Positions 3,056 through 61,079 of a stretch of DNA of 64,000 bases are shown here, one piece after another. The notes below the pieces were generated by a model. It had not been told where the DNA came from, made no database searches, and was given only the letters and a program-made list of their open reading frames with translations. The stretch spans positions 3,076-67,075 of the forward strand of contig JACDGK010000001.1 in the NCBI GenBank assembly GCA_013815345.1. The letters are read 5' to 3'. This DNA is from Patescibacteria group bacterium (GTDB lineage: Bacteria; Patescibacteriota; Minisyncoccia; Phycocordibacterales; Phycocordibacteraceae). The translations under genes and the position numbers were made by a program. Within the stretch, counting starts at the first letter, position 1. Every line of letters starts with the position of its first letter.

Positions 3056-3199
3056 ATGATCTTGAAAAATTGTTTCCGCGCTGCCACGGGAGTGCTCGGA
3101 CTTGCTCTCCTCGGCACCGTTGGGTTGTTTCTCTGCGCCCTCGCGCCGCTCTTGGTGAGCCGGGATGACCTGAGCGCTGCCGGCGTTCTGTGGAAATAG
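3056..3199 (+). CDS. Small hydrophobic protein (47 aa) MILKNCFRAATGVLGLALLGTVGLFLCALAPLLVSRDDLSAAGVLWK
   Basis: Strong Shine-Dalgarno GGAAAGGAGG lies 6 nt upstream of the ATG. It has a single TM-like segment and is followed by a GC-rich hairpin plus T-tract. It is below the ORF-track length cutoff. Confidence 0.4.
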   Translation: MILKNCFRAATGVLGLALLGTVGLFLCALAPLLVSRDDLSAAGVLWK

Positions 3200-7955: not shown

Positions 7956-8022
7956 TTCATAGCGCGTAAAAATACACGTGAATAAAATATTAAAAATTAG
8001 AATCTAACCTACTTACAACTCC

Positions 8023-10065: not shown

Positions 10066-10073
10066 TTGCGCGT

Positions 10074-10173
10074 CGCAGGCATAGCCATAAAAAGGTACGC
10101 ATAATTTTCTGCTGAAAATTTGCTCGCTCTCGCGCGGTCACGCTCCGAGAGCCCTTTTTATGGCTATGCCTGC
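10074..10173. repeat. Long inverted repeat (21-bp arms GCAGGCATAGCCATAAAAAGG / CCTTTTTATGGCTATGCCTGC, about 58-nt spacer containing a nested GC-rich palindrome)
   Basis: Read directly in the gap between the convergent rnj (+) and glycosylase (-) genes. Probably a bidirectional terminator or structured element. Confidence 0.5.
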
Positions 10174-10191
10174 TTCGCTCCCCTCGATATC

Positions 10192-11064
10192 CTAGTGCGG
10201 CAGTCGGAAGTGACTTCCATTCTTCTGTATTAAATGCTCACTCTCAAGTCTTTGGATTTGTATTTTTATTTGGTCCTTCCGGTCATGACCCAACAATCTA
10301 GAAAGTTGAGCCACAGTTTGAGGACCGGAAATAAGAGCTCTGAGAATTGCGCCGCGGACTTCTCGATTTGAACCCGCGAATGTTGATTGTTTTGTATAGG
10401 TGGTGCTTTTAGTATTGTTGCGAACTCCCGAACGTTTCAGGTGAGCGCCATAGTCCATGAGCGCGGAGTACCATTCGCGGGCATTTCCTTTCGGGAGTGC
10501 TTTCGCTAAAATCGCCAGAATATCTTTATCTGCGACTTCTTTCTGATCATGAAAAAAATGATGCGTGATGACCGTACGCACGTTTGTTTCGATACATACG
10601 ACATCTAAATTGTACGCGAAAGTGGCCACTGCTCGGGCCGTATAGGGACCGACCCCTCGTAACGATTCCAGCTCCTCGACCGAGTCAGGAAGTTTTCCTT
10701 TATATTCACTTACTATCTGTTTCGCTGCTTCATGCAGCATTTTTGCGCGACGATTGTACCCAAGCCCTTGCCACTCTTTTAGGACATCCCCGAGCGATGC
10801 TTTTGCGAGGGCATGAACCGTTGGAAATTTTTTGAGAAATTCTTTATAAAACGGCTTTACTCTATCAACTTGTGTCTGCTGCAGCATCACTTCAGACACC
10901 AAAATCTTATAGGGATCCGTTGTCTTCCGCCACGGCAAATCATGTCTCCCTTCTTTCTCATAGTATTTCCAGACGATTCGCTGAAAATCTCGAATGTTGC
11001 CAGAGGATCCTTTTACCATGTTCCGAGGAGGGGCTCTCGGAGCTGGTCTGGCTTGGCCCGCCAT
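10192..11064 (-). CDS. HhH-GPD DNA glycosylase (MutY/EndoIII-like) lacking the 4Fe-4S Cys motif, with a C-terminal winged-helix-like tail
   Basis: HhH-GPD core LQQTQVDRV...LRGVGPYTARAV. Only one Cys in the region where MutY/Nth carry C-X6-C-X2-C-X5-C. Confidence 0.65.
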   Translation of the reverse strand: MAGQARPAPRAPPRNMVKGSSGNIRDFQRIVWKYYEKEGRHDLPWRKTTDPYKILVSEVMLQQTQVDRVKPFYKEFLKKFPTVHALAKASLGDVLKEWQGLGYNRRAKMLHEAAKQIVSEYKGKLPDSVEELESLRGVGPYTARAVATFAYNLDVVCIETNVRTVITHHFFHDQKEVADKDILAILAKALPKGNAREWYSALMDYGAHLKRSGVRNNTKSTTYTKQSTFAGSNREVRGAILRALISGPQTVAQLSRLLGHDRKDQIKIQIQRLESEHLIQKNGSHFRLPH

Positions 11065-11157
11065 TCTGATGGCGGCAGACCGGCGAGAGGGAGCGCGACT
11101 CTCCGCAGGAAAGAGTCGACGCGTACCCCCGCAGGAATAGGGGAAAAGATTCCTCTT

Positions 11158-11883
11158 TTAAACATCGTAAATAACATCTTTGCGCTCCACGACCACCTTC
11201 CACTCATTTTGTTTCGCATGTCGATATAAAAGTCGGTTCGGATTGAAGGCAATCGGTGTCTCGACAAGATCAAGCATCGAAATGTCACTTTCCGTATCAC
11301 CCACGCCGTAGGATCCCATGAGGGTAAGGTTTTCTTTCTCAACCGCGCGCTTCAATATAGCGCTTTTGTTCATGATCAAATGCTCATCGGTCACTACACC
11401 GGTAAAACGATCGCTGGCTCCCGTCTCATACAACGTTCCGTATGTTTTATTAAAACCAAGCTCGTACCCAAAGCCATCAACAATAAACTTTGGCGAGTGA
11501 GATACGCCGAGCAAATAGTATCCATTGCTTTTTAAATCATGAATCAGGTCCCGCGTGTAGCGATACACGCGATGTTTCTTTTGCTCGATAATCTCGCCCG
11601 CCACATCAGCAACGTCACTATAGAGCGTGCCTTTCACATGATGTGCAAACGCCTCAACAACCTTTTTAATAAATGGTCCGTATTCACCATTTCGATTCAG
11701 CCATTCAACTTGAGCCGGCTCATATACTTGACGAGCGTCAGCAGGAAATATTTCCCGCTCGATTAACGCATCAACCAACTCTATTAAAAGAGAAGCGCGG
11801 AAAACCGTTCCATCAATATCAAAAACTGCCACAGGTTGCTTTTCTGTCGGATCTTTAGTCATAACTCTATGGTACCTCCACAT
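11158..11883 (-). CDS. HAD-superfamily hydrolase (subfamily IB-like)
   Basis: Motif I DIDGTV and motif IV GDTESD. Start could be the internal MTKDP. Confidence 0.75.
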   Translation of the reverse strand: MWRYHRVMTKDPTEKQPVAVFDIDGTVFRASLLIELVDALIEREIFPADARQVYEPAQVEWLNRNGEYGPFIKKVVEAFAHHVKGTLYSDVADVAGEIIEQKKHRVYRYTRDLIHDLKSNGYYLLGVSHSPKFIVDGFGYELGFNKTYGTLYETGASDRFTGVVTDEHLIMNKSAILKRAVEKENLTLMGSYGVGDTESDISMLDLVETPIAFNPNRLLYRHAKQNEWKVVVERKDVIYDV

Positions 11884-12157
11884 CCGCTAAAACAGAAAAC
11901 GCCCCCAGAATTTGGAAGCGTCTTTTCGAAAAAGAACTATAAAAAATGAGCTTGGCCCAGTCCCAAGAAGCACAGCAGGTGGCTATAAAATGCCAGGTTT
12001 CCCTGGAATGCCCTGTGACCACGCACCTCATTAGGCTCCGGGGAGAGCGCACAAAGGTGAATACGAGCCATACCCCGTGGACTTTCTTGTCACCGCTTGA
12101 TTCAAGGAACTGGGACCTCGAAGACTATACTCCGGATAGAATATTTTTGCAAACTTT

Positions 12158-12844
12158 CTACTTAGCTTTTGGCCAGCGCTCGGCAGCAGGGGGCCAGATC
12201 TTGGTAAGGGGGTGTTCGTCACAGGCGTGCGGAAGAGCGGGACATACGTAGCGACCATATAGAACGAATCCGTTATTTACATATTTCCAATCTTCTTTTG
12301 GCATAAGTGCTTCAAGGTCTTTCGAGATTTTCGTGAGGTCAGTATTGCTCGTGAGATCGAAACGAAGCGATAAGCGTCGTACATGCGTGTCGGTCGGGAT
12401 ACCTTCCCAGATATTGTAAAGTTCACCGAGTATGACGTGTGAAGATTTGTACGCAACACCGGGCAAGCGAATCAATTCCTCAAGCGTTTTAGGAATCTCG
12501 CCCCCAAACTCATCTTGAACGAGTTTTCCGGCGGCAATGACATTCTTTGCTTTCGCTGCAGGAAATGTTATCGAAGAAATCTCACGTACAAACATATCAA
12601 AATCAGCATTCGCAAAGTCACGTGCGGTTCGATATTTCTTATACAATGTGTCGGTAACATGATTTACTTTCTTATCCGTGCACTGTGCAGAAAGCATTAC
12701 TGCGGCCACGAGTTGGAAAGGTGTTTCGTAGGTGAGCTCGGTAACCGGCGTAGGGTAGGTTTTTTTAAGATACGCAAGAATAAGTCGTGCGCGCTGCACG
12801 CGTTCTTCAGTCGTTGAGAGGACAGGAAGCAGCAATGCGCTCAT
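12158..12844 (-). CDS. nth: Endonuclease III-like HhH-GPD glycosylase (Nth family) with an incomplete Cys cluster
   Basis: HhH motif LIRLPGVAYKSSHVIL and a catalytic Lys/Asp region. The C-terminus has only C-X6-C (CPALPHAC) instead of four Cys. Confidence 0.7.
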   Translation of the reverse strand: MSALLLPVLSTTEERVQRARLILAYLKKTYPTPVTELTYETPFQLVAAVMLSAQCTDKKVNHVTDTLYKKYRTARDFANADFDMFVREISSITFPAAKAKNVIAAGKLVQDEFGGEIPKTLEELIRLPGVAYKSSHVILGELYNIWEGIPTDTHVRRLSLRFDLTSNTDLTKISKDLEALMPKEDWKYVNNGFVLYGRYVCPALPHACDEHPLTKIWPPAAERWPKAK

Positions 12845-12866
12845 AGTACTTTGACTTTAGATGCAA

Positions 12867-14054
12867 TTAAAATTCAGAAAGATCCCGCGAGTATTTCCGG
12901 AATGCAAATTGATAGAGAAGCGAGAGCAATACCCCGCCTGCGGTAGCACCCAAGACTATCTCAACAACCGACCCAATCACAGGAACAAGACCGATGAGGT
13001 AGAGCACTAGGACTCCCAGAATTGCGGTGCGCCACGAAACGTTTCTTTTTTTACGCAACGCTCGCATGAGCGCTGCCCCAGCGAGCACGGCAGCATACAC
13101 ATACGAAAGAAGGAGGAAAAGAATATATGCGGCGCCGATGATAAAGGCTATACCGATCCCCACGAACGAAACGATGAGGAAAAGGAATAAGACCGGTACG
13201 GCAACAAATGCCGCAAATCCAAGCAAAGTCATGAGAATAAATCGTTCAGGGGTGCGGGTGAGCGCTGCCTCTACCACCCGATCAGTAAGCAACGGAAAGA
13301 GTCCCGCAATGAGCCCTACCGCGACAAGTGCTGCAGTAATACGAACAAGAACAAATACCCAAAATCCGGCGAGGGCAAATGTCTTCGCCTGCTGTGCCGT
13401 TGGAAGGTAGGGTTCTGCGCCGATGTAGGTTACTCCTTTATCTACCATCGCTGAAGCAGCTATATCCGCCTGTGCCGGTGCGTTATATTTTAATGCACCA
13501 TGGATGATTGTTCCTGGACCCACTGACACACGATCCGATGCGACCACTTGCACGTCGCCATTGAATTCACCCGAGAGAGATACGGTGGCACCATAAATAG
13601 TTACGGGACCGTTCGAGCCGTTGGTCATTTGCACCGTGCCTCCTCCAATGTATGTGTTCTTTGCTTTTCCCGATACATTTACGATGCCTCCTGCTGCCAT
13701 AAAGTCGCCGTTGACCGTGTCCTCAAGATTTATACGGCCACCAATAACCCGCACGTCTCCTGCTATGGGTTTATGAATATCAATAGTTCCGCCAGCAAGC
13801 AGTGCGTCGCCTTGTATCGGTGCGGAAAGAGTAAGCGTACCGCCGATGGCGCTCAAATCTGCTAACAGAGGAACGTTTATCGTCACTTGACCGCCGGCAT
13901 AGTACGCGTTATTCGGAGTTGATGAGGAAACCTCGATGACGCGGGCACCTTCTACTGTTTGAGCCTGAGAAAGCTCCGGAATAACGAACATGAGCAGGGC
14001 AAATGTACCTACTAAAACGACGCGGGCACTGAGGATTATCGTCTGAGGCTTCAT
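12867..14054 (-). CDS. Membrane protein: signal peptide plus Gly-rich beta-helical (bactofilin/DUF583-like) repeats fused to a C-terminal polytopic TM domain
   Basis: Repeating GG[TR]I/V..G.. units (GGTLTLSAPIQGDALLAGGTIDIHKPIAGDVRVIGGRINL...) followed by 5-6 hydrophobic helices. Confidence 0.55.
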   Translation of the reverse strand: MKPQTIILSARVVLVGTFALLMFVIPELSQAQTVEGARVIEVSSSTPNNAYYAGGQVTINVPLLADLSAIGGTLTLSAPIQGDALLAGGTIDIHKPIAGDVRVIGGRINLEDTVNGDFMAAGGIVNVSGKAKNTYIGGGTVQMTNGSNGPVTIYGATVSLSGEFNGDVQVVASDRVSVGPGTIIHGALKYNAPAQADIAASAMVDKGVTYIGAEPYLPTAQQAKTFALAGFWVFVLVRITAALVAVGLIAGLFPLLTDRVVEAALTRTPERFILMTLLGFAAFVAVPVLFLFLIVSFVGIGIAFIIGAAYILFLLLSYVYAAVLAGAALMRALRKKRNVSWRTAILGVLVLYLIGLVPVIGSVVEIVLGATAGGVLLSLLYQFAFRKYSRDLSEF

Positions 14055-14156
14055 ATGCCGTATGGTATCACGCAGCCAGAACCCTCACTACCGATACGAG
14101 CATTGTAACCGTTACCATGTATGGTATACTTTACATATATCTAATCGATACTATCT

Positions 14157-14576
14157 ATGCCAAACGTTGAAAAAACAGAAGAAGAGTGGAAGAAGGAACT
14201 CACCCCCGAAGAATACCGCGTGCTTCGTGAGAGCGGCACCGAAGCTCCTTGGAAAGGTGCATTCGTCGACAATCACGAAACAGGGATGTATAGCTGCAAA
14301 GCGTGTGGCGCAAATCTTTTTTCTTCTGACACAAAGTTTGACTCTAAGAGCGGCTGGCCTTCCTTTACCGATGCCGCAGTTGCTGAAAACGTCGGCACTC
14401 GGTCAGATGATGCGCTCGGTATGCATCGCACCGAAGTCTTTTGTAAGAACTGTGGCGGCCATCTTGGGCATCTTTTTGATGACGGGCCCGTGGAAGCAGG
14501 CGGCAAACGTTACTGCATAAACTCCGTCTCTCTTGCATTTGAAAAAGAAGGTGAGCAAAAGACCGATGCTTCATAA
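14157..14576 (+). CDS. msrB: Peptide-methionine (R)-S-oxide reductase MsrB
   Basis: CxxC...CxxC zinc motif pairs (CKACGANLF, CKNCGGHLGHLF) and RYCINS. Confidence 0.9.
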   Translation: MPNVEKTEEEWKKELTPEEYRVLRESGTEAPWKGAFVDNHETGMYSCKACGANLFSSDTKFDSKSGWPSFTDAAVAENVGTRSDDALGMHRTEVFCKNCGGHLGHLFDDGPVEAGGKRYCINSVSLAFEKEGEQKTDAS

Positions 14577-18024: not shown

Positions 18025-19854
18025 CTAGCTCGAGCGTTTGCCATGCAGGAGAAGCTCGACGGCATGTTCCATAGAGCCTGCGGGAGTGAGCGTGCCACCA
18101 TTTACGAAGAAAATCTCGTCGGCATTTTGGATAGTGTTGAGACGGTGCGCGATGATGACTTTCGTGGTTGAAGCCGGCAACTGGTCAAGAATTTCTTCGA
18201 GAAGCTGTTCGGTGACCGTATCGATGTTTGCTGTTGCCTCGTCAAGGATAAGAATCTCCGGGTCACGAAGTGCCGCACCCATGAAGGCGATTAGCTGTTT
18301 CTGGCCGAGCGAAAGCGCGTCGCCGCTCGCGGCGACTTTTGTGGCGAGACCCTCTTCGAAACGAGAGACGAGCTTCGTGAGATGCGCTTCTTCTATGACT
18401 TTTGTAAGCTGTTCATCTGAGCAGTCAGTATAGGCTGCGTTTCCATACACGATGTTGTCACGCACCGTGCCACTAAAAAGGAATGGTTCTTGGAGAATGA
18501 ACCCAATCTTCTGCACGCGATCAGAAGGTTCGTACGAACGTACATCCTTTCCATCAAGAAATATGGTGCCGCTGGTCGGGTCATAGAGACGTGCCATGAG
18601 CGAAGCGGTCGTGGTTTTTCCGCCGCCCGTCGGCCCGACTAGTGCATACGTCTTCCCTCTTTCGAGAGTGAAACTAACATTGTTCAGCACGGTCTGCCCA
18701 CCAGGGTATCCAAAGGAGACATCTTTGAATGCAAGTACCGCATTTTCATCGCTCGTTTCGCCTTCGGGAATCACTTGCATATTGGACTGTAGCGCAAGCA
18801 CATCCTGAATACGGTCGAGCGAGGCGAGTGCGAGTTGAAGCGAAGACCATACGGCCGCTAATTGACGAAGAGGATTGTAGAAATTGTTGACATACAATAT
18901 ATAGCCGATAAGGAGACCGACCGTTAAGTGTCCGCTGAGAATGAGGTACAGGCCAAAGGCAAGCACAATGAGCTGACCCAGATTGCTCGCGAGTCCATAA
19001 AGTGGTGTGAAAAGATTCGAAGCAATCCCCGCCTCTATTGAGGCCTTGTAATTCGCTTGGTTTGCTCCGTCAAATTTCTCACGAAAATAATCGAGACGAT
19101 TGAATGCAACAATGACTTTAAAATTATTCAGACTTTCTTGAATCTCTGCACTCATCGCTCCGAGACTTTGCAATCCGGCACGACTTTTCCTTTTTACCCA
19201 GCCAGAAATGAACTGCGTGATGACAAGGACAAGGAGTGCAGGAATAAGTGCGGCAAGACCGAGTTTAAAATTAAGCGCGAGCAAGAAAATACCGGCTCCG
19301 CCGATCAGAAATGCGCTTCCCGCAAACTGCACAAGTGCCTGAGCAAAGAATTGATTTAATTTGTCCGTATCGCTGTTGATTCGGGAAATAAGATCACCCG
19401 TTTTATTTTGATTAAAGAATGCAATTGGAAGCTCTTGGAGCTTCGTGAAAAGCTCGTTGCGCATCTTGAAAAGCACACTGCGGCCCACGAGTCCCATTCG
19501 CTTCGTTTGAAAATAGGCTGCAAATAATCCAACCACATATACGACAAGAAGAAGGAGCGAGAAGATCAGAATACCATCAAAGTTTCCATGCGTAATATAT
19601 ACATCCACTACATGTGCGATGATGACCGGCGCAAGCAACGTCGAAAGCGCGTTTATAACGATAGCAACAAGCGCAATGGTGAGATTCCCTCTTTGATCAC
19701 TCAGCAACGGTGCGAGGCTTTGATATGCCCGTACAAATGTACCTTTTCCCTTCCCTTTTGAGTCGGTTGGGAGTACGTAGCTTACTATTTCATTTTTTGA
19801 TGAGGATTTATTCATAACTTTCGGTGCTCTTCTGTGAATCGTATATCTGTACAT
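18025..19854 (-). CDS. ABC exporter, fused TMD-NBD (MsbA/multidrug type), partner 1
   Basis: Six-TM N-domain, Walker A GPTGGGKTT, signature LSLGQKQLIA and Walker B ILILDEATA. Confidence 0.85.
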   Translation of the reverse strand: MYRYTIHRRAPKVMNKSSSKNEIVSYVLPTDSKGKGKGTFVRAYQSLAPLLSDQRGNLTIALVAIVINALSTLLAPVIIAHVVDVYITHGNFDGILIFSLLLLVVYVVGLFAAYFQTKRMGLVGRSVLFKMRNELFTKLQELPIAFFNQNKTGDLISRINSDTDKLNQFFAQALVQFAGSAFLIGGAGIFLLALNFKLGLAALIPALLVLVITQFISGWVKRKSRAGLQSLGAMSAEIQESLNNFKVIVAFNRLDYFREKFDGANQANYKASIEAGIASNLFTPLYGLASNLGQLIVLAFGLYLILSGHLTVGLLIGYILYVNNFYNPLRQLAAVWSSLQLALASLDRIQDVLALQSNMQVIPEGETSDENAVLAFKDVSFGYPGGQTVLNNVSFTLERGKTYALVGPTGGGKTTTASLMARLYDPTSGTIFLDGKDVRSYEPSDRVQKIGFILQEPFLFSGTVRDNIVYGNAAYTDCSDEQLTKVIEEAHLTKLVSRFEEGLATKVAASGDALSLGQKQLIAFMGAALRDPEILILDEATANIDTVTEQLLEEILDQLPASTTKVIIAHRLNTIQNADEIFFVNGGTLTPAGSMEHAVELLLHGKRSS

Positions 19855-21526
19855 ATTCAGGGGATGTTGTGAGCAGTTCTTGGTGGGTACCCACTGCGAG
19901 CACTTCGCCTTCCATAAGAAGTATGATTTGATCGTATTTTTCGATCGGTGCGATCTTTTGTGTCACAGAGATGAGAGTAAGATCAGGATAATTCTTTGCA
20001 ACATTCGCCAAAATCTTGTGCTCGGTATTCGTATCAACCCGTGCGGTAAAATCATCGAGAAGCAGGATTTTAGGATTAAGCGCAAGTGCGCGTGCCAGCA
20101 TAATGCGTTGTTTCTGGCCACCTGAAAGCGATAGACCACGTTCTGAAACGATAGTATTAAGACCATCGGGTAAGGTGCCAATGAAGTCATGCAGTTCAGC
20201 GGTGTCGATTGCTTTTTGCAGATCGTCGTCGTTCACGGTATTGCTAAAGGCAATATTCTCCCGAAGTGTAAGGTTAAAAATGATACTGTCCTGAAAGACA
20301 AAACCGATCTGCTCGTGAAGTTTTTCTTTTTTGTAACTATCGATCGGCTCATTATCATATTCCACCAACCCGGTGGTCGGCTTCAAAAGTCCCGTAAGCA
20401 GATAGAGAAGCTGTGTCTTTCCTGCGGCCGTCGGCCCAATGATGGCATTTTTGGTTTTCGGTTGAACGGTAAAGGTAACCTCTTGGAGTGCTTTTCGCTC
20501 ACCGTAATGCACGGAGACATTTTTAATCTCAACCGCTCCTGAAAGCTCGTTTGTAAGCGTGCCGCTATCTGGAACATCTGCAGCGTTCAAGACATCTACA
20601 ATGCGTGCATAGGAAGCGCTTGCTTGTGCAATAACATTGCTCATAAAACCGATAATAATGATCGGGAAGATCAAAATGAGCAGGTAGCTATTGAATGCCG
20701 TAAAATTACCCAGACTCATCGAGCCATGAATGACGAAATACCCGCCGAGCACAAGAATAATAAGGGCGGCAAGATTTGAAATGAAAGTAATAGCGGGTAT
20801 GAGAAGCGCGAAATAGCCAATGATCTTTATACCGAGTTCGCGTGATGCCCCAGAAGCAGCTACAAATTTGGTGTATTCGAGATTACGAGAATCCACAAGG
20901 CGGATAAGTGAAGAACCTAAAATACTTTCACTAATAACTTTGTTCAGCCAGTCAAGTATTTCCTGAGCTTTTTTAAAGAGCTGTCGAACACGGGAGAGTA
21001 CGATGTAAAAAGTTACACCGATGATCGGAAGTATGGTGATTACGGCAAGGGCAAGACGCCAGTTAATAAGTAGGAGCAGCGTGCACGCACCAATAATAAG
21101 AAAGACCGAGGAAATGAGGGCTGCAATTGCTTGCGAAACAAAGGTTTTTACTGCATCCACATCGGAAGTGAGATTGGTCAGAAGTTTTGCGGGAGTGATG
21201 GTTTCTATCGTCGCATTTGCCTGTACCGATATTTTTGCCGCGACACGAGTGCGCAGGTCACGCGCAACTCGCTCCGAAGCAACGGTCTGCACAATGCTTT
21301 GGAAATAGGTAAAAATAAAAATACCGACCGCAATAAGAAAGAAGTCGAGAATGACGGTAGTGAGTACTAGATTTCCTCTCGTATAAGCATCAATCGCTCG
21401 TGAGGTGACCTGCGGTACCACGAGACTCAAACCGTTCGCAAGAATCGTGAGAATGGTTAGCAAAAAGATCCACCCTTTATAGGGCTTGAGGAGGCTTATG
21501 AGACTTGGTGGTTTTTTCTCTTTCAT
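19808..21526 (-). CDS. ABC exporter, fused TMD-NBD, partner 2 (heterodimeric pair)
   Basis: Signature LSGGQKQRIMLARAL and Walker B LLLDDFTA. Overlaps partner 1 by 47 nt. Confidence 0.85.
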   Translation of the reverse strand: MKEKKPPSLISLLKPYKGWIFLLTILTILANGLSLVVPQVTSRAIDAYTRGNLVLTTVILDFFLIAVGIFIFTYFQSIVQTVASERVARDLRTRVAAKISVQANATIETITPAKLLTNLTSDVDAVKTFVSQAIAALISSVFLIIGACTLLLLINWRLALAVITILPIIGVTFYIVLSRVRQLFKKAQEILDWLNKVISESILGSSLIRLVDSRNLEYTKFVAASGASRELGIKIIGYFALLIPAITFISNLAALIILVLGGYFVIHGSMSLGNFTAFNSYLLILIFPIIIIGFMSNVIAQASASYARIVDVLNAADVPDSGTLTNELSGAVEIKNVSVHYGERKALQEVTFTVQPKTKNAIIGPTAAGKTQLLYLLTGLLKPTTGLVEYDNEPIDSYKKEKLHEQIGFVFQDSIIFNLTLRENIAFSNTVNDDDLQKAIDTAELHDFIGTLPDGLNTIVSERGLSLSGGQKQRIMLARALALNPKILLLDDFTARVDTNTEHKILANVAKNYPDLTLISVTQKIAPIEKYDQIILLMEGEVLAVGTHQELLTTSPEYVQIYDSQKSTESYE

Positions 21527-21755: not shown

Positions 21756-23105
21756 TCAATTCTTATTTTGCAAGCTATCTTGAATGGAAACGAGTGTGGC
21801 AAGAAGCGCGGCTGCACTCCACGCTTGCGTACGACACGCGCTTTGTCCGCTTGGTCCTCGGTATTCTTCAAAACCTTCATCCCCATACGCAAAAAGTTCG
21901 ATAGGCGTCTCAAAATGTGCATATGAATTTAAGAGAGCGACTCGCACTCTCTGAGCTTCATCGGTATACCCAAATCGTTCTAATCCCTCTGCTATGATTC
22001 CCGTGTCATGTGGCCATATCGAACCGTTGTGGTAACTATTTACCTCAAAATGTGATGAGAGAGATGAAAGGGTACGAATGCCTGCCTGCGGAATAAAAAG
22101 ATCTTGCTGCATCAGCCTTTCAACGATTCCCGAAACATGTGCAGAGTCGAGAATGCTTTGGGGAAGTTCCCCATGAAGAATCGGGGCTGCCCAAAGACAG
22201 TGTCCCATCGATGATCGTACGGAAGTCAGTAACGTTTCCGTTCCATCTACACCCGCAGCGAGCGCGGTTTTCCCGGTATCGGTGCGAACGAAAATCTCGA
22301 TGAATCTTTTTTTCAACATTCCCGCTTGTTCACTCAATATCTTTGCATATTGAGGATCTTCGATTGCAAAATAAACACCCCACCCAACGAATGCAGCATA
22401 GCTATAGGCTTGCACTTCTACCGAAGCGATCGGGTATGAAGGCCGAGTGTCATTATCCTCAAAAAAAAGTGACTCCGAGCTATCCATCCAGCTTTGTACC
22501 GCCAAACCGCCAAACCGCCGATCCTGATGGAAACGATAATCAATAAAAGCGTCATTATTAGTGTCGCCATAAATAGAAAGCCAGGAAAGCGAAGCGCGTA
22601 CGTACGGTAATATTTCATCCAAAAATGCCGCATCTTCGCTCACCTCGAAATATTCTTTACACGCCATAAGAAAAAGCGGTGTCGCATCGACCGTATCGTA
22701 GTTACGCATGATGTTATCGTCATACACATACCAAGGTTGAGTCAGATGCTTCGTGAGATGCTCATGGTTGCCGGGTCGGAACTCATGAATGTTTTTTCCG
22801 GGTTCTTCCCCGCTTTCTTGATTCACTTTCGTGCCCTGCAGTTTCCCTAAATTTATCAGAATCTTTCGTACGAGGGACAAGAAATACGTATCTTTTGTCT
22901 TTTTGTATACCTTCAAAAGCAAGAGGCTTGTGATAAGAGAGTCACGACCGAATACACAGCCATATACCTCATCTCGCCCCGAGGCAAGAATTCCTTCAGG
23001 TACTTCCAGCGATTGAATGGTGCGCATGCCGATATCCCACAAACGGCTACGCCGTTCGTTGCTTATGAGCTGTTCCTCGGGTAACCCGACCGGTAATGAT
23101 TCCAT
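21756..23105 (-). CDS. Six-hairpin glycoside hydrolase (amylo-alpha-1,6-glucosidase GDE_C/GH63-like)
   Basis: VFGRDSLITSLLLL motif typical of the GDE C-terminal/(alpha/alpha)6 domain, 449 aa. Confidence 0.6.
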   Translation of the reverse strand: MESLPVGLPEEQLISNERRSRLWDIGMRTIQSLEVPEGILASGRDEVYGCVFGRDSLITSLLLLKVYKKTKDTYFLSLVRKILINLGKLQGTKVNQESGEEPGKNIHEFRPGNHEHLTKHLTQPWYVYDDNIMRNYDTVDATPLFLMACKEYFEVSEDAAFLDEILPYVRASLSWLSIYGDTNNDAFIDYRFHQDRRFGGLAVQSWMDSSESLFFEDNDTRPSYPIASVEVQAYSYAAFVGWGVYFAIEDPQYAKILSEQAGMLKKRFIEIFVRTDTGKTALAAGVDGTETLLTSVRSSMGHCLWAAPILHGELPQSILDSAHVSGIVERLMQQDLFIPQAGIRTLSSLSSHFEVNSYHNGSIWPHDTGIIAEGLERFGYTDEAQRVRVALLNSYAHFETPIELFAYGDEGFEEYRGPSGQSACRTQAWSAAALLATLVSIQDSLQNKN

Positions 23106-54317: not shown

Positions 54318-55460
54318 ATGATCGATACATTCAAGAAAGCGGCGCCAGAAGTGCTCACCGGAATTCGCGAAGAAATGGCTGTCCGGCGTACGACCGAAGT
54401 TTTTCTGCTGTTCGTTAATGGCAGCCAGTTCGACCATCTCATCTTCCAGACCACAAGCAAGCTCGGCGTCTACTGTCTTGTGGCCGATCCTGCGTCGGTT
54501 ACGTCAGAGGATGTGCGAGCTCTGAGTCCGAAGGGCATCATTCTGTCAGGAGGCCCGGCGTCAGTCGTTTCCGAACCACCGCGTTTCGACAACGCGATCT
54601 TTGATCTCGACATTCCGGTACTCGGAATCTGCCTCGGCTTTCAAATGTGGGCAAAGTATGCCGGCATCCAAGTGGTGGAAGGGACGAGTAAGGAGTTTGG
54701 CATGAATGACTTGCGCGTCTTAAACCCCAGCGGCTTGCTCGAAGACTTCGAGCAAAACACAACGACTCCCGTTCTTCAAAGTCACGGTGATCAAGTACTG
54801 CTGGATGAACGACTCACCCTTCTCGGCTCCACCACCTTCCATGGTGATGCAGTCGCGGTGTCTGCGGCTTCACTCGGACATCTTCACGGTGTCCAGTTCC
54901 ATCCCGAAGTCACCGAGACTTTGAAGGGTTCGAAAATTTTCGAGAACTTCTGCTTTGGTATCTGCGGCGCAAGGGATCGATTTTCGGCCCATAATATTGC
55001 CGAACAAAAAATTGCGACTCTTCAGAAAAAAATCGACGACAAGAAAGTACTACTCGCTCTCTCAGGTGGTGCTGACTCGTCGACGGTTGCCTATCTTCTG
55101 AAGCATGCCACCATCGGACGAGGCAACAGATACAACGGGGTGATTCCATTCACTCGGCATATGAGCATGGAGGCTTGCTGCGGCAAGAATCCTGTCTACC
55201 ACGTAGGCAAGCTTTACACCGCCATCTGCTCTCTCATTTCCGATGAGATTCATCGTCTTGTAGGACTTGAGACATACGTGTATCTGACCTCTCAGATGGG
55301 CAGAAGTCTGTCGGACCCATGGTCTGCATGCGTGGAGGTATGCGGCGGAGATACAACATCTGCGCAACGTCAGATGATTGAAGCAATCCTCGAGCGCAAC
55401 TTGGCAAATGCCAACGAAACTACCCAGAAAATCGTGAAAGGAGAATTGAACCTATTCTGA
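54318..55460 (+). CDS. guaA: GuaA-like protein: class I glutamine amidotransferase plus the start of a PP-loop ATP pyrophosphatase. The C-terminal half is not GuaA-like, so this is possibly a pseudogene.
   Basis: GATase GICLGFQMW and VQFHPEV, PP-loop LLALSGGADSSTVAYLL. After LLKHA the sequence no longer resembles GuaA and stops at 380 aa. A +2 frame shows a GGLLRQES fragment resembling the GuaA VDNGLLRLNE motif. Confidence 0.55.
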   Translation: MIDTFKKAAPEVLTGIREEMAVRRTTEVFLLFVNGSQFDHLIFQTTSKLGVYCLVADPASVTSEDVRALSPKGIILSGGPASVVSEPPRFDNAIFDLDIPVLGICLGFQMWAKYAGIQVVEGTSKEFGMNDLRVLNPSGLLEDFEQNTTTPVLQSHGDQVLLDERLTLLGSTTFHGDAVAVSAASLGHLHGVQFHPEVTETLKGSKIFENFCFGICGARDRFSAHNIAEQKIATLQKKIDDKKVLLALSGGADSSTVAYLLKHATIGRGNRYNGVIPFTRHMSMEACCGKNPVYHVGKLYTAICSLISDEIHRLVGLETYVYLTSQMGRSLSDPWSACVEVCGGDTTSAQRQMIEAILERNLANANETTQKIVKGELNLF

Positions 55461-55474
55461 AGGGATCGATCCTC

Positions 55475-55510
55475 AGTACCCATGTCGTAACGACATGGGT
55501 ACTTTTTTTA
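55475..55510. terminator. Bidirectional terminator AGTACCCATGTCG-TAA-CGACATGGGTACT followed by TTTTTTT
   Basis: Perfect 13-bp stem between the convergent guaA-like and S51 genes. Confidence 0.6.
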
Positions 55511-55511
55511 T

Positions 55512-56207
55512 TTACAGATTGAAAGATTCTTCAGGATTAAGTTCCCTTTTTGTTCCATCTGCAAGATAAATAACACACGACTTTGTGCCAGCGCATAAAG
55601 CGCTGCCATTTTCTATAACTAGACCACTTTCTTCTGGTAAGCAAACAATCGGCAAGTTATTATCAATTGCCCAAGTTCTAAATCTGTCATTCTGTTCATC
55701 CTTAAAGTGACAGGCTACCGAAAAATTATTTAGAAGATTAAATCCCGATACGTCTTCCAGACCTATTTTATTTTCATCATCATGAGTATTAATTTTCTTA
55801 CCCATTATGATTGCACCGGCACTGCCTCCGTAAACTTGACCACCAGCTTCAATGTATTGAATTAAAATATCAGCAAATCCAGAATTTTTAAGCTCCTGCA
55901 TAAGGCTCCATGTATTGCCGCCTCCGATATAAATCCCATTAAATTCTTTAAGGGTTTCGAGAGTATATTTTGATGGGTCGTCTACCGTTTCGAACTGAGT
56001 ATCCGCTCTTTCATGAAGTTCGGTAATGCTGTTCATCCACAAATGCGCGGTAGGATATAGCTTGTGTCCGCGGAGAGCTATGGGTATGTATAAAAAGCGT
56101 CCATTTTTTGGTAATGTACTAAAAAAAAATTTGTCGAGGGGGAATGATTGCTTCTCATTACCACCCCCCGACAAATATATTCGGTTGTTCTCCTTTATGT
56201 TTTGCAT
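55512..56207 (-). CDS. Peptidase S51 family (dipeptidase E/cyanophycinase-like)
   Basis: GGGNTWSL...GGSAGAII matches the S51 catalytic Ser region. Confidence 0.75.
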   Translation of the reverse strand: MQNIKENNRIYLSGGGNEKQSFPLDKFFFSTLPKNGRFLYIPIALRGHKLYPTAHLWMNSITELHERADTQFETVDDPSKYTLETLKEFNGIYIGGGNTWSLMQELKNSGFADILIQYIEAGGQVYGGSAGAIIMGKKINTHDDENKIGLEDVSGFNLLNNFSVACHFKDEQNDRFRTWAIDNNLPIVCLPEESGLVIENGSALCAGTKSCVIYLADGTKRELNPEESFNL

Positions 56208-57382
56208 GTTTGTATCGCTTTGCGCAGCTCGTAAATGTTAGCGTTACAAATATACACCAAGCGGTCGAAATAGGCTTGACTCGTCTCACTACTTCGAGGT
56301 GGCGGAAGCCCTAACGTCTCACAGACCCTCAGATTAACGAACCTTTCGATCTCCAAGAGGGCAAGCTGGACGGCGGCCTCGCGGTTAATCGACGGCTTGA
56401 TGAATTGCGCCCAATAATCGAAATAATACGCAAGGATGCTATATACATCCGAACCGTAGTACTTCTCACTGAGCACTTTCGCAAACCGCCTGAACTGGAG
56501 ACCTGAACCCTTGTTTGCAACTTGGACGCCGCATAGCACCAAGAGCGCAATCGTCCGACATGAGTCGAACATTTCTCGCGTCCCATTAGCAGTCCATGGC
56601 ATAAGCACATCGAAGTAGGAATCGGTTTTGTTTATGGCCCATGCCATTCTTTCAAGACCGAAGCCGATATCGCTGATTGGAATCGCCGGACGGTTCGCTT
56701 GGGGAATAAGAAGATAAGCGGCATCTCCAAGCTCAAGCCCCCCGTAGGAAAAAAAGAGCTCAAGTGCCGAAAATTTCCCGGTTCCCCAATCATTAACGGA
56801 TGTTCTCATGACGACAATGAAGTCGTTCATATGAAGACCGAGCTTTGAAAGAATTGTGCACCAGTGGTCTACTGACCGCAGATGCTCTGCAAACTCTGCC
56901 CCCATCTTTTCCGTGCAAACGTTCACGAAGGAGGTTGATGTCCCTTCTTGCGACTCGACATGCGGTTGAAACTGCATACGAACACATGGCTGCGCCACAA
57001 ACACTTTGTCATTTCTGATTTTTTGATTGCGATGAATGACATCATCAAACATCTGCACACCAGCAATGACCAGGTCAGTCTGACCCTCGAAATTCGCAAT
57101 GTTGCGCGGAGGTGCCAGATCAAAGCCTACCGAACGAAAGTATTCGCTCATCCGTGTGCTGATTTGTACAGGGGTCAGCATCTTCTTCCGCTTGGTATAT
57201 GTGCGGAAAGGATAACCTCCTTTGTCGCACTTATGCCAGCCGCAGACCGAGACATCCATTTTGGTAGATGGCTTAGAGAAAAAAGTTCTGTCACAGGAGC
57301 TACACGAGCGCCCCTGCCATCCTCTTTCGGCCATGAATTCATTCACGGCCTTAGAGGTATCCACAATTGTTGTTTCAGACAT
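56195..57382 (-). CDS. Stand-alone alanyl-tRNA synthetase catalytic-domain paralog (AlaRS-N-like) with a Cys4 insertion
   Basis: LVIAGVQMFDDV (AlaRS motif 1 region FTNAGMNQFKDV), QPCVRMQ (QRCVR), DIGFGLERMAWAINK (DTGMGLERL motif 3) and RTIALLVLCGVQVANKGSGLQFRR (start of the tRNA-recognition domain). It lacks the editing and C-Ala domains. Insertion CSSCDRTFF...CGWHKC. Confidence 0.6.
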   Translation of the reverse strand: MSETTIVDTSKAVNEFMAERGWQGRSCSSCDRTFFSKPSTKMDVSVCGWHKCDKGGYPFRTYTKRKKMLTPVQISTRMSEYFRSVGFDLAPPRNIANFEGQTDLVIAGVQMFDDVIHRNQKIRNDKVFVAQPCVRMQFQPHVESQEGTSTSFVNVCTEKMGAEFAEHLRSVDHWCTILSKLGLHMNDFIVVMRTSVNDWGTGKFSALELFFSYGGLELGDAAYLLIPQANRPAIPISDIGFGLERMAWAINKTDSYFDVLMPWTANGTREMFDSCRTIALLVLCGVQVANKGSGLQFRRFAKVLSEKYYGSDVYSILAYYFDYWAQFIKPSINREAAVQLALLEIERFVNLRVCETLGLPPPRSSETSQAYFDRLVYICNANIYELRKAIQTCKT

Positions 57383-57470
57383 GGGTGTATCTCCAGTTAA
57401 GGTTTCAATGTTCTAAATCTGTACTCTGCCTACAAACTAACGATAATTCTCTTTTTTGTCAATATAGACC

Positions 57471-57499
57471 TTGACTAAATCAATAATTGATATTAATAT
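57471..57499 (+). promoter_or_regulatory. Putative sigma70-type promoter for serS (TTGACT - 17 nt - TAATAT)
   Basis: Consensus-like -35/-10 spacing about 60 nt upstream of the serS ATG. No T-box leader was seen. Confidence 0.3.
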
Positions 57500-57560
57500 T
57501 CCGACCTGTCATCTAAACGTAGTTCATTGAAACCAACAACCCTTTTTAGGAGACAAAGTT

Positions 57561-58850
57561 ATGCTCGATATCCGATTCATTCTCGACAACGTCGAACTGG
57601 TCAGACAAAACACGCAGGACCGGAACGCCAACGCTGATGTTGACAAGACAGTTGCTCTATACGGGCAATTGAAGCAGAAAAGACAGAGTCTCGAAGAGGC
57701 TCAATACCGATCCAACCAGATCTCTGGACAATTCAAGGGTGCCGACGAAGTGACCCGCGAACAACTTAAGACAGAGGTTGCAGGTCTCAAACAGATCATG
57801 GCAACACTTAAGGAAGAGATCGCGGTCATCGAAAAGGAGTACACCGAGGAAGTGCTCAAGATTCCCAATCTTGTCGCTCCCGATGTTCCTTCCGGCAAAG
57901 ATGAGCATGGCAACGTGCCCATCAAGCATGTCGGTGAGCCCACCAAGTTTGGCTTCAAGCCACTCGATCATGTCGAGCTCGGCAAAAAGTTGGACATCCT
58001 GGACTTTGAGGCGGCGGCGAAAGTCACTGGCTCGAAGTTCTACTTCTTGAAGAACGAAGCTGTTCTTCTCGAACTCGGTCTCATCCGCTTCGCACTGGAC
58101 CTGGCGATCAAGCACGGCTTTACGCCGGTGACAACGCCAGAACTTGCTCGTGACGAGATCATCACAGCTTCTGGATTCTCTCCGCGAGGACCCGAAAGCC
58201 AGATCTACTCCCTTACAGAAGGAGACCTGAGCCTTATCGGTACCGCCGAGATCACCATCGGTGGTTATCTGGCCAAGACCGTGATTCCAGAAGAGGATCT
58301 TCCGATCAAGATCTCCGGCGTCAGTCATTGCTTCAGAACTGAAGCTGGTAGCGGCGGTCGTGAGAGCAAGGGACTTTATCGGGTACATCAGTTCAGCAAG
58401 GTCGAACTCTACCAATTCGTTCATCCCGACAAGAGCGCAGCCGCTCACGAAGAGATGCTCGCAATCGAGGAAGAGTTTTATCAAGCCCTGAAACTTCCCT
58501 ACCGCGTTTTGCTCATGTGCAAGGGCGATCTGGGAACCCCCGCGTACCGGAAGTACGACATCGAGGCGTGGATGCCTTTTGTCGGCGAAGGTGGCGGATA
58601 TGGTGAAGTGACGTCCGCGTCAAACTGCACCGATTTCCAAGCACGACGCTTGAACACCAAGTTCAAGAACAGTGCTTCTGGTAAGACTGACTTCGTCCAC
58701 ACCCTCAACGGCACAGCTGTTGCTGTTACTCGAACGATGCTCGCCATCCTCGAGAACAACCAGCAGGCCGACGGTACGGTACTCATTCCCGAAGTGTTGC
58801 ATCCCTACGTTGGGGTGCAGAGCATCAAACCAAAAAACAAGAAATTCTAA
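57561..58850 (+). CDS. serS: Seryl-tRNA synthetase
   Basis: N-terminal coiled-coil arm, class II motif 2 HCFRTEAGSGGRESKGLYRVHQF and motif 3 GTAVAVTRTMLAILENN. Confidence 0.9.
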   Translation: MLDIRFILDNVELVRQNTQDRNANADVDKTVALYGQLKQKRQSLEEAQYRSNQISGQFKGADEVTREQLKTEVAGLKQIMATLKEEIAVIEKEYTEEVLKIPNLVAPDVPSGKDEHGNVPIKHVGEPTKFGFKPLDHVELGKKLDILDFEAAAKVTGSKFYFLKNEAVLLELGLIRFALDLAIKHGFTPVTTPELARDEIITASGFSPRGPESQIYSLTEGDLSLIGTAEITIGGYLAKTVIPEEDLPIKISGVSHCFRTEAGSGGRESKGLYRVHQFSKVELYQFVHPDKSAAAHEEMLAIEEEFYQALKLPYRVLLMCKGDLGTPAYRKYDIEAWMPFVGEGGGYGEVTSASNCTDFQARRLNTKFKNSASGKTDFVHTLNGTAVAVTRTMLAILENNQQADGTVLIPEVLHPYVGVQSIKPKNKKF

Positions 58851-59237: not shown

Positions 59238-61079
59238 CTAAGCTTCAACCTTGCGGAAACGGAACACAAACTCACGGCCAGAATCCCACCCGCTGCCAGG
59301 CTCCGCCCAACTGCGGTCGAGCCACAAACCGCCGTCATACCGGCGCAGGCGGAAGACGCTCGGGTCGCCATCGCGAGCCGCAATTTGCTTCATACCAATA
59401 TGTACGTATTCTCTTAAGGGTTGGTCTTTATATTTGAGACGATAGTTAGGTCCTGTATCTGGGGGACAGAGTTCCAGTCCGAGGGCTTCCGCTCGTTCAT
59501 AAATCTGATCAGTAGTAGCGTTTGTCTTAAATCCAAGATCGGCGACAGTGAGGCGAACAAGCTTCGCTTCTTCGCGATTTTCGGAAACGGTAAAATCAGG
59601 ATTCCCCATCATTGATTTTGCATAATCAGAGATGTTGATTCCAGCCGATTCCATTTCGGCAATGAGTTGCTCTTTTGACTTTCCTCCTATTTCCACGCTA
59701 TCTCTCCTAATTTTCTTTTCGGGAAATGAGGTATAGACATGTTCTAGATGTTCCGACAATTTTTGAAAAATGCCCGGTTCGAGTTGTCCGACATACGCTT
59801 TAGTTTTTTCAGTTATTTCGCTCGGCACATGAGCGATCTCGTCTCTGGTACATTCAAATATGACAAGCATATCTTCCTCAGTATTTCTCCCTTCCCGAAG
59901 TTCGTCGATACGAGGGTCTTTATCATATCCGAAGCCCTCGATAGTTCCGTTGATTTCGTAAAGAAAGGTTAAGTCGTCTTTAGTAAACGGTTCCTCTTTT
60001 TCACGTTTTTGGTCAAGAGCGGTCAATATTTTCATGTCATTACTCTTCTTGCGATATGAATCAGCTTCGCCACCAAAATCTTGAAGTTTTGCATCAAGTG
60101 CTTCTTGCATGATCGGCTCTACTCCTTGGTGTGGCAAAATACCTCGCACTTCGCCAATCTTGTTCTCTCCATTCATACGGATAGCGAGGCGGGGTTGGGT
60201 CGGCTCGCCTGATGAATCGTTAGTGTAATACACATAAAAATCGCCTGATTCTATCTGCGTCTCGGCCGTCGAACGTCCGGCAGTACACCAGCCAGTGCCC
60301 TTGCCTTCTAGAGATTCAAATAATTGCTCTGCATCACCATTTCTTCCTTGCTGATATTTTTTCCATTCACCCCTGACTTCTTCACGACCTTCCATTGAGG
60401 CTGCGAGAGATTTTGAAATGAGTTCAGCATAAAGAGTTGGAAACTTCTTAGAGAACGCTTCTTTGATTTCTGGTTCCCTGAGGTGCTTGTTATCCTCTTT
60501 TACTTTTAAGTAAATATCGGCAATTTGGGCAAGCGGTTCGCGGTAGATATCCGGATATGGAGCGACTGTTGTACTAGTTCGCTTTTTGAATTCACCTCGT
60601 TCTTTGTCGAATTGGGAAAGCTTGGTGACCTGGTTCCAAGCGTAGTATTTAAACCAAGCAGGATATACCGCATCATTTGAAGAAAGATAGTCAATCCAGG
60701 CATCAAGCGAGTGCTTCTGGTCTTCGATCGCCACGCTCATCATCTGCTCGCGGACGTTTTCTGGAATTTCTTCTACCGCTTGACCTCGCTCACGAGCAAT
60801 ACGTTGCTGGAGCTCGAAATATGATTCTGGAAAGTTCTCTTTCTTGATGATGAATGCGTCGTATATCTTATTCCGAAACATGTCTAGGTTTCGTTCACGA
60901 ACTCGCTCGTCTGGATTGAGAAAAACATTCTCCAAGCGATCCATATACGCCTCAACGCGTTCCGCAGGATCATTTGGTATTTTTTCTTCGGTCTGTCTCT
61001 CTTCTCGCTCCACGGCTCGATTTACCTCAGGAGAGGTTTGGAGTTCTGGGTTTTTGAGATGAAGCGGATGTTTTTCCAT
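59238..61079 (-). CDS. Large hypothetical cytoplasmic protein (613 aa), no recognised domain
   Basis: Long charged ORF (Glu/Lys/Arg-rich), no TM helix, no nucleotide-binding or nuclease motifs found by eye. Confidence 0.6.
   Translation of the reverse strand: MEKHPLHLKNPELQTSPEVNRAVEREERQTEEKIPNDPAERVEAYMDRLENVFLNPDERVRERNLDMFRNKIYDAFIIKKENFPESYFELQQRIARERGQAVEEIPENVREQMMSVAIEDQKHSLDAWIDYLSSNDAVYPAWFKYYAWNQVTKLSQFDKERGEFKKRTSTTVAPYPDIYREPLAQIADIYLKVKEDNKHLREPEIKEAFSKKFPTLYAELISKSLAASMEGREEVRGEWKKYQQGRNGDAEQLFESLEGKGTGWCTAGRSTAETQIESGDFYVYYTNDSSGEPTQPRLAIRMNGENKIGEVRGILPHQGVEPIMQEALDAKLQDFGGEADSYRKKSNDMKILTALDQKREKEEPFTKDDLTFLYEINGTIEGFGYDKDPRIDELREGRNTEEDMLVIFECTRDEIAHVPSEITEKTKAYVGQLEPGIFQKLSEHLEHVYTSFPEKKIRRDSVEIGGKSKEQLIAEMESAGINISDYAKSMMGNPDFTVSENREEAKLVRLTVADLGFKTNATTDQIYERAEALGLELCPPDTGPNYRLKYKDQPLREYVHIGMKQIAARDGDPSVFRLRRYDGGLWLDRSWAEPGSGWDSGREFVFRFRKVEA

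Follow-up and report, generated by a model that had tools for sequence, protein, structure and literature searches.

A stand-alone AlaRS-derived protein coupled to an S51-family hydrolase in Patescibacteria, a candidate for aminoacyl transfer outside translation

The AlaRS-like gene and its locus

The 64,000-nucleotide stretch of DNA analyzed here (the window) spans positions 3,076 to 67,075 of contig JACDGK010000001.1 from a Patescibacteria group bacterium (GenBank assembly GCA_013815345.1). On its minus strand, at 56195-57382, lies an open reading frame (ORF) with an ATG start that encodes 395 amino acids (aa); both coordinates and length had been given exactly by an earlier interpretation of the letters alone, hereafter the sequence-only reading. 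The product is a true but very distant homolog of alanyl-tRNA synthetase (AlaRS), consisting of a stand-alone class IIc aminoacylation core and a helical domain of the tRNA-recognition type, with neither an editing nor a C-Ala domain, and it is probably not the enzyme that charges alanine in this cell. We refer to it as the AlaRS-like protein. An identical protein has been deposited from a 193,536-bp contig as a 328-aa "hypothetical protein" that starts at an internal Met (H0X32_00330, Patescibacteria group bacterium; P0016). Judged by conservation, the 395-aa ORF and not the deposited version is the right gene model, because the N-terminal 67 residues, which include four Cys, are conserved in homologs.

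The AlaRS-like gene is followed on the same strand by the gene of a 231-aa serine hydrolase of the Peptidase_S51 family (55512-56207, minus strand), whose start codon lies within the last 13 nt of the AlaRS-like gene, and relatives have the same short overlap. Convergent on the S51 gene is a chimeric ORF (54318-55460, plus strand), in which residues 34-265 correspond to the N-terminal half of GMP synthase (GATase and the start of the ATP-PPase). This 5' half of guaA is fused in frame to the remnant of an archaeal-type S-adenosylmethionine (SAM) synthetase, MAT (55104-55460, plus strand); the last ~118 residues of the chimera are the MAT C-terminus and are 96% identical to those of relatives, none of which has guaA at this place. 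The chimera reflects either a recent deletion/fusion or a mis-assembly of the metagenome-assembled genome (MAG). Between the two convergent genes, a hairpin with a perfect 13-bp stem, followed by a T-run (55475-55503), is likely a terminator.

On the other side, a spacer of 178 nt (57383-57560) separates the AlaRS-like gene from the divergent serS (57561-58850, plus strand), a recurrent neighbor of the cassette. It encodes a canonical bacterial-type seryl-tRNA synthetase (SerRS) of 429 aa, which scores 481 bits against a cutoff of 302 and has an ordinary housekeeping look. The sequence-only reading had the two genes share a promoter region. This stands as far as the divergent layout and a link to serS that is conserved in relatives are concerned, but promoter-like hexamers, which occur on both strands of the spacer, are no commoner there than in shuffled sequence. 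A scan of the spacer and the rest of the cassette surroundings for Rfam elements such as riboswitches and T-boxes gave no match.

Elsewhere in the window, two large ORFs have no Pfam or NCBIfam match, one of 613 aa just past serS (59238-61079, minus strand) and one of 449 aa (21756-23105, minus strand). Tandem genes for MsbA-like ABC exporters (18025-21526, minus strand) give strong sub-threshold matches to the model of a "cyanophycin metabolism-associated ABC transporter", which is curious since the S51 family includes cyanophycinase, yet they lie 35 kb away from the cassette.

Homology to AlaRS and the residues kept and changed

The AlaRS-like protein is ~15-17% identical to AlaRS and has no significant match in Pfam, neither to PF01411 nor to PF07973. 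In NCBIfam it stays below the cutoffs of both the archaeal AlaRS model (TIGR03683; E = 2.7e-8, 32.5 bits versus 744.7) and the bacterial one (TIGR00344; 19.1 bits versus 457). A single-sequence search of the PDB sequences finds Archaeoglobus fulgidus AlaRS at E ~5e-3, the profile of the family (29 members) finds it at E = 1.1e-10, and profile-profile comparison against 20 aligned, genuine AlaRS proteins from candidate phyla radiation (CPR) bacteria gives a probability of 96.8% (E = 3e-10, 286 columns). In this last comparison, residues 69-361 pair with AlaRS residues 1-405, that is, with the aminoacylation and tRNA-recognition domains, and the protein ends at a position equivalent to AlaRS residue ~405.

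The alignment of the protein to AlaRS residues 1 to about 400 that the sequence-only reading had proposed is therefore borne out for residues 69-361 but not for residues 15-68, which fall outside bacterial AlaRS. Its four motif pairings made by eye (the AGVQMFD/AGM.QF region, QPCVR, DIGFGLER, and the NKGSGLQFRR/N..GY.LRR region) were all recovered by the alignments. Its claim that the editing and C-Ala domains are missing agrees with the point at which the alignment stops and with the lack of a PF07973 match, while the PF01411 profile that it had named as a check is not matched in Pfam.

Structure prediction points in the same direction. With the family alignment as input, AlphaFold2 gives a confident model, with a mean predicted local distance difference test score (pLDDT) of 89.5 and a predicted TM-score (pTM) of 0.88. 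When this predicted structure is compared with known ones by Foldseek, archaeal AlaRS comes out on top (E = 4e-16; TM-score relative to the query, TMq, 0.70-0.74) and all top matches are AlaRS, the next being catalytic fragments of bacterial and human AlaRS (TMq 0.51-0.59). The alpha subunit of glycyl-tRNA synthetase (GlyQ) was considered as the closest match and rejected, as it ranks below all AlaRS structures (TMq ~0.35-0.41 versus 0.51-0.74). The class IIc aminoacylation fold comes with the motif 2 Arg (R135) and motif 3 GLER245, both of them aligned and invariant.

Ahead of the catalytic core stands a Cys4 element (57227-57304, minus strand), whose C27, C30, C47, and C52 are invariant among 29 subfamily members. 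Described as an insertion in the sequence-only reading, it is not one: residues 15-68 match the N-terminal extension of A. fulgidus AlaRS Cys for Cys (RCPKC...ICGDPPC), and because the four Cys align in this way, the N-terminus is of the archaeal AlaRS type. The element is probably a zinc ribbon. It is present in about two thirds of the superfamily representatives and lost in some subfamilies, and since about one third lack it, it is not essential to the core function of the family. Among distant members we also observe stages of its decay, with C-C-C-H in L032 (1501-2703) and no Cys at those positions in L033 (138-1283).

For a residue-level comparison we used the 73 alignable positions that are invariant, or nearly so, in CPR AlaRS. 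At 31 of them the family has the identical residue and conserves it. In the catalytic core (aa 69-265; 56588-57178, minus strand) these include Q131 and R135 of motif 2 (QPCVR135), the adenine-stacking F152, W199, E208, E217, and D238 and G240, which run into motif 3 (D238-I-G240-F-G242-L-E-R245). In the C-terminal helical domain (aa 266-395; 56198-56587, minus strand), which corresponds to the tRNA-recognition domain of AlaRS as far as residue ~405, they include D273 as well as N290-K291, G294, and R298-R299, the equivalents of the acceptor-stem-contact motif N-K-x-x-G-Y-x-x-R-R of AlaRS. The remaining 42 positions are changed, many of them to new invariant residues (D71 to F138, H80 to G147, E85 to V153, N206 to D220, V208 to A222, and Y307 to L295), with D220 found in 29/29 subfamily members; the profile-profile alignment adds M86 to N154. 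STSF152-V-N154 is a signature of the family, and W324 and E344 are invariants specific to it.

The replacements concentrate on the alanine pocket as it is known from E. coli and A. aeolicus AlaRS. Residues M86, N206, V208, D229, and G231 of CPR AlaRS are, in what we take to be the corresponding E. coli numbering, M92, N212, V214, D235, and G237. The first three presumably line the pocket, and the last two presumably hold the alpha-amino group and limit the size of the side chain. In the AlaRS-like protein, D238 and G240 are kept, and the equivalents of N206, V208, and M86 are replaced. From these kept and changed residues, the alpha-amino anchor and the ATP arginines would be retained, in a side-chain pocket that has gained in size and polarity relative to AlaRS. 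As to tRNA recognition, the subfamily keeps N290, the equivalent of the Asn that reads the G3:U70 pair, together with G294 and R298-R299. The domain is cut short at about AlaRS residue 405, AlaRS having an Asp (E. coli D400) as its second reader of G3:U70.

Across 137 superfamily representatives, Q131, P132, R135, F152, D238, G242, E244, and R245 are essentially invariant, and the pocket positions vary by subfamily (220 is D/V/E/I, 222 is N/S/V/G/I/A, and 240 is G/S). R276, G294, and R298 are conserved superfamily-wide, and N290 is kept in 55/137 representatives. An invariant core with a varied pocket is the sequence pattern typical of active enzymes with diversified substrates. It is not what would be expected of decay, and the decayed fragment that the sequence-only reading had entertained, which would have lost its active-site residues, is at odds with a core that is kept throughout the superfamily.

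Family extent, partners, and genomic contexts

An initial search returned 180 relatives, most of them from Patescibacteria MAGs. All are ~394 aa long, bear the label "hypothetical", and have no Pfam domain. When 1.84 billion cluster representatives (clusters at 50% identity) were searched exhaustively with a profile, 491 representatives were recovered at E <= 1e-3, 236 of them at E <= 1e-30. Their lengths are almost always 360-420 aa, and no full-length AlaRS is found among the best 150. With a profile of distant members, the family scores at least 243 bits and the next matches at most 95 bits; the latter are Patescibacteria proteins of 570-650 aa with PF01411 and PF07973 that are named alanine--tRNA ligase. 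Superfamily members are overall 25-35% identical to each other, and the subfamily of the window is rare: a pattern-limited scan of ~185,000 species representatives gave 26 loci. Within the same genome pairs, identity amounts to 51-69% for the AlaRS-like protein versus 70-80% for SerRS and 65-74% for MAT, so by sequence divergence the AlaRS-like gene is evolving faster than its neighbors. Two members, P0211 (674 aa) and P0347 (662 aa), have extra C-terminal domains of ~270-290 aa without a Pfam match, which may be further fusion partners. A phage origin was considered and rejected, as no relatives were found in viral contigs. A literature search for AlaRS-like/S51 gene pairing found nothing specific, and the superfamily, with its AlaRS origin, archaeal-type N-terminus, S51 coupling, and SAM link, appears to be undescribed. 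Stand-alone paralogs of aminoacyl-tRNA synthetase (aaRS) cores with chemistry outside translation are, as a kind, already known.

The most constant partner is the S51 hydrolase (PF03575, 86.7 bits versus a cutoff of 23.9). Of its Ser-His-Glu triad, Ser129 and His167 are each conserved in 74/74 partners and Glu192 in 71/74. It is a distant member of the S51 family, and since it falls below the equivalog cutoffs of both PepE and cyanophycinase, it represents a separate subfamily; its closest structure is Lmo0363. In relatives, the archaeal-type MAT comes next, in convergent orientation, and aligns over its full length with solved archaeal MATs (E = 6.5e-74); SerRS is at most a few kb away, with no fixed position or orientation. 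When the AlaRS-like proteins are de-replicated at 60% identity, the informative clusters show adjacency to S51 in 28/33, to MAT in 25/27, and to SerRS in 13/18 cases; at 45% identity the counts are 11/15, 10/12, and 7/10. The linkage also holds in L029-L033, whose members are just 29-39% identical, and even in L034, where the SerRS is of a different type (type 2). Natural fusions join the AlaRS-like protein to S51 (P0200) and to class I SAM methyltransferases (P0214 and P0217). No tRNA gene is found consistently near the cassette across the loci. An anti-phage defense system was considered as well and rejected, as neither the AlaRS-like nor the S51 proteins had a PADLOC match.

In more distant subfamilies the same core is found in richer operons. 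One type (type A) consists of an optional radical SAM gene, MAT, AlaRS-like, S51, a ~349-aa protein resembling family 1 glycosyltransferases (GT1), and a 192-aa methyltransferase. Another (type B) consists of a radical SAM enzyme (~310 aa), AlaRS-like, a histidine phosphatase that resembles alpha-ribazole phosphatase, and S51, with SerRS nearby. The type B radical SAM enzyme is nearest to MoaA, viperin, and twitch/SPASM enzymes. A radical SAM aminomutase partner, following the logic of EpmB, was rejected because the recurrent proteins resemble enzymes of the MoaA/viperin/SPASM type and not lysine aminomutases.

A third context is found in a high-GC-looking subfamily, within large co-directional clusters (L118, L119, and L120). 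L118 and L120 encode UDP-sugar dehydrogenase, polysaccharide deacetylase, methyltransferases, radical SAM/SPASM proteins, DegT aminotransferase, epimerase/dehydratase, GT2 and GT1 glycosyltransferases, and MAT, and L119 encodes a cyclase resembling dehydroquinate (DHQ) synthase that is fused to an aminotransferase. At L034 (4018-11179), one tight operon comprises radical SAM/SPASM, a type 2 (methanogen-type) SerRS, MAT, DegT aminotransferase, GFO/IDH/MocA oxidoreductase, and AlaRS-like genes; PqqD, a second radical SAM gene, and a short match to the AlaRS N-terminus (14137-14346) were observed nearby. The near-constant presence of MAT would be explained if the pathway consumes SAM in radical SAM and methyltransferase steps. 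By analogy, these distant contexts resemble the tailoring of sugars, aminocyclitols, or nucleosides by pathways that first create an amine and then acylate it.

Proposed function and comparison with known systems

That the AlaRS-like protein is the organism's own alanine-charging enzyme, whether as one half (alpha) of a split, Nanoarchaeum-type AlaRS or as a mini-AlaRS with editing done elsewhere, is highly improbable. The protein does cover the same region as the aminoacylation and tRNA-recognition domains of AlaRS, its N-terminus is archaeal-type, its neighbors serS and MAT are of the housekeeping type, and no other AlaRS is encoded in the 64-kb window or ~4 kb beyond one of its ends; Pfam and NCBIfam searches of all large ORFs in the window found neither a canonical alaS nor an editing/C-Ala gene. 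However, the alanine-pocket residues that are invariant in AlaRS are replaced, the gene evolves faster than its neighbors, the subfamily is rare in the pattern-limited scan, and CPR bacteria own a 570-650-aa AlaRS with an editing domain. A beta-half gene is never adjacent: no editing/C-Ala gene was found beside the cassette in ~120 loci, where S51 and SAM synthetase are the constant partners, and the fusions go to S51 and methyltransferases instead of AlaRS domains.

Coexistence with a genuine AlaRS is observed directly on one contig. A tblastn search of ~1.17 Mb of fetched loci with AlaRS probes from E. coli, A. fulgidus, and CPR bacteria recovered a single genuine AlaRS, on the 31-kb contig L082. 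This protein is complete at 618 aa (160-2016), scores 448 bits against PF01411 and 48 bits against tRNA_SAD (PF07973), and is 44-46% identical to annotated CPR AlaRS. Located 8 kb downstream (7689-13489) are genes for myo-inositol-phosphate synthase (MIPS), MAT, an AlaRS-like protein (392 aa, ~34% identical to the window protein), an overlapping S51, a GT1-like protein, and a methyltransferase. The two proteins thus occur together in the superfamily, and we infer the same for the subfamily of the window. Together with the replaced pocket and the missing beta-type gene, L082 speaks against the N-terminal half of a split AlaRS that the sequence-only reading had offered as one alternative. The other, an aminoacyl-transfer paralog, fits the altered pocket, the S51 and MAT partners, the fusions, and the coexistence on L082.

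Two further explanations leave alanine charging aside. A strict non-canonical aaRS would activate an amino acid other than alanine with ATP and esterify it to the acceptor stem of a tRNA or tRNA-like molecule, for non-ribosomal use or recoding, with S51 as a trans-acting deacylase or proofreader. It would account well for the conservation in the subfamily of the ATP and alpha-amino residues along with N290-K291, G294, and R298-R299, for the superfamily-wide R276, G294, and R298, and for an architecture that equals the minimal AlaRS fragment recognizing the acceptor helix; a viral mini-AlaRS core can charge tRNA (PMC10036535). We regard it as a serious rival but consider it unlikely, given that N290 is kept in just 55/137 superfamily representatives, that no tRNA gene travels with the cassette, and that distant members reside in small-molecule-type clusters. 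A catalytically dead pseudo-synthetase, acting as a HisZ-like regulator or scaffold that, for example, senses an amino acid or uncharged tRNA and controls S51, MAT, or SerRS, is improbable. The remodeled motif 2 loop (F138, G147, and V153 in place of D71, H80, and E85) and the tight coupling to a partner by overlap and fusion would suit such a role, but both class II arginines, the stacking Phe, the Mg-site Glu, and the alpha-amino Asp are near-invariant at 25-35% identity, and an adenylate site so conserved across the superfamily is hard to explain without catalysis or ligand binding there.

We lean toward the view, which we hold with modest confidence, that the AlaRS-like gene encodes a non-translational, AlaRS-derived aminoacyl-transfer enzyme that forms one unit with S51 in a SAM-needing module usually linked to SerRS. 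The enzyme would bind an alpha-amino acid via D238 in a pocket (N154, D220, and A222) of greater size and polarity than in AlaRS. Serine is the leading candidate for the subfamily of the window, a best guess made because of this polar pocket and the linked SerRS. The amino acid may be activated with ATP, as by the mycothiol ligase MshC, or drawn from the Ser-tRNA of the neighboring SerRS, as by the transferases AcmF and VlmA. The aminoacyl group would then be passed on, not to tRNA-Ala but to a different acceptor, most likely an amine or hydroxyl of a metabolite that is of the sugar, cyclitol, or nucleoside type and is tailored by SAM-dependent enzymes. S51 may hydrolyze the same, a related, or a precursor amide or ester bond in processing, recycling, or proofreading, and the overlapping genes suggest that the two proteins are translationally coupled.

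Several observations weigh against this proposal of a transfer enzyme. The motif 2 loop lacks the His and Asp that are invariant in AlaRS (replaced by G147 and F138), which by sequence leaves ATP-dependent activation less than assured, and the kept acceptor-stem motif would fit a tRNA acceptor equally well. The subfamily of the window has a minimal cassette (AlaRS-like, S51, MAT, and SerRS) with no sugar or cyclitol genes adjoining, and because of this the acceptor is extrapolated from subfamilies that are just 25-35% identical. In the window genome the cassette MAT is broken, so either the module can do without an intact MAT next to it or the contig is mis-assembled there. Both MAT and SerRS are of the housekeeping type, and their linkage could partly be inherited synteny. 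Finally, a comparison of SerRS adjacency with pocket residues gave a weak, sampling-biased trend.

A broader claim, which we advance as a tentative possibility, is that this unrecognized and widespread AlaRS-derived superfamily (~500 clusters in CPR bacteria and other organisms), with its obligate S51, dedicated MAT, and frequent SerRS, carries out a new kind of aminoacyl transfer. One example would be the attachment of serine to a sugar, cyclitol, or nucleoside metabolite that undergoes SAM-dependent tailoring, or to a cellular macromolecule. Paralogs of aaRS cores have repeatedly founded new chemistry, as in MshC, EpmA/PoxA, AsnA, the amino-acid:carrier-protein ligases, and AcmF. Reduced CPR genomes are generally thought to keep few dispensable pathways; if the claim is true, they contain here a minimal conserved pathway, and because of this conservation its product may matter for the symbiotic lifestyle of CPR bacteria. 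The family is large, AlaRS-derived, annotated throughout as "hypothetical", and invisible to Pfam and NCBIfam, and it comes with a clear and testable set of partners, namely S51 (overlapping or fused), MAT, and SerRS and, elsewhere, radical SAM, aminotransferase, and glycosyltransferase genes. In marker-gene analyses or aaRS inventories, AlaRS-like proteins should not be counted as AlaRS.

Among known systems, archaeal AlaRS (A. fulgidus 2ztg/3wqy and P. horikoshii 2zze) is the best match in both sequence and structure. It has in common with the window protein the N-terminal Cys4, the QPC(V/I)R motif 2, the D.G.GLER motif 3, and the N...G.G...RR acceptor-stem motif. Unlike archaeal AlaRS, the window protein ends at about residue 400, without the rest of the tRNA-recognition domain, the beta-barrel, and the editing and C-Ala domains, and its alanine pocket and motif 2 loop are changed at an identity of 15-17%. 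The split AlaRS of Nanoarchaeum equitans and the viral mini-AlaRS are described as true alanine-charging enzymes, with the split form needing its beta subunit. They share with the window protein an AlaRS catalytic module that has no editing and C-Ala domains, but not the altered pocket or the constant S51 hydrolase partner. The CPR "small AlaRS" combines catalytic, tRNA-recognition, and editing domains in ~600 aa (bioRxiv 10.1101/2023.05.29.542759). It comes from the same phylum, is the next-best match after the family, and is alignable over its residues 1-405. In contrast to the window protein, it matches PF01411 and PF07973 strongly and has all alanine-pocket residues as well as the editing domain, and is a real AlaRS.

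A functional parallel may be AcmF from the ascamycin pathway, a truncated AlaRS-like, Ala-tRNA-dependent aminoacyl transferase whose acceptor is an adenosine derivative; its Ala-tRNA comes from the AlaRS of the cluster, AcmD, and the hydrolase AcmE takes the alanine off again (PMC12945691). AcmF is reported to be without most residues for ATP binding and alanine activation (N219Q and D232E; PMC12945691). Compared by description, AcmF and the window protein both have aminoacylation and tRNA-recognition domains only, and AcmD and AcmE parallel the SerRS and S51 seen here, as an analogy of gene content and not as functional proof. The window family differs in keeping R135, F152, E217, D238, and R245 and in its archaeal-type N-terminus, AcmF being a bacterial-type Streptomyces protein, and the partner hydrolase of AcmF belongs to another fold family than S51.

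With respect to ATP-dependent activation, MshC, the cysteine ligase of mycothiol synthesis and a paralog of cysteinyl-tRNA synthetase, adenylates its amino acid and joins it through an amide bond to an aminosugar-inositol; other enzymes of its pathway are MIPS, a GT1/GT4 glycosyltransferase, a phosphatase, and a deacetylase. All of these have counterparts next to distant family members, not in the minimal cassette of the window, and as MshC has a class I fold and is not homologous to the window protein, the likeness is one of pathway logic alone. In the valanimycin cluster, a cluster SerRS (VlmL) supplies Ser-tRNA to the transferase VlmA, which is not aaRS-like. The type 2 SerRS inside the AlaRS-like operon of L034 resembles this arrangement, whereas the SerRS of the CPR cassette has the look of a housekeeping enzyme instead.

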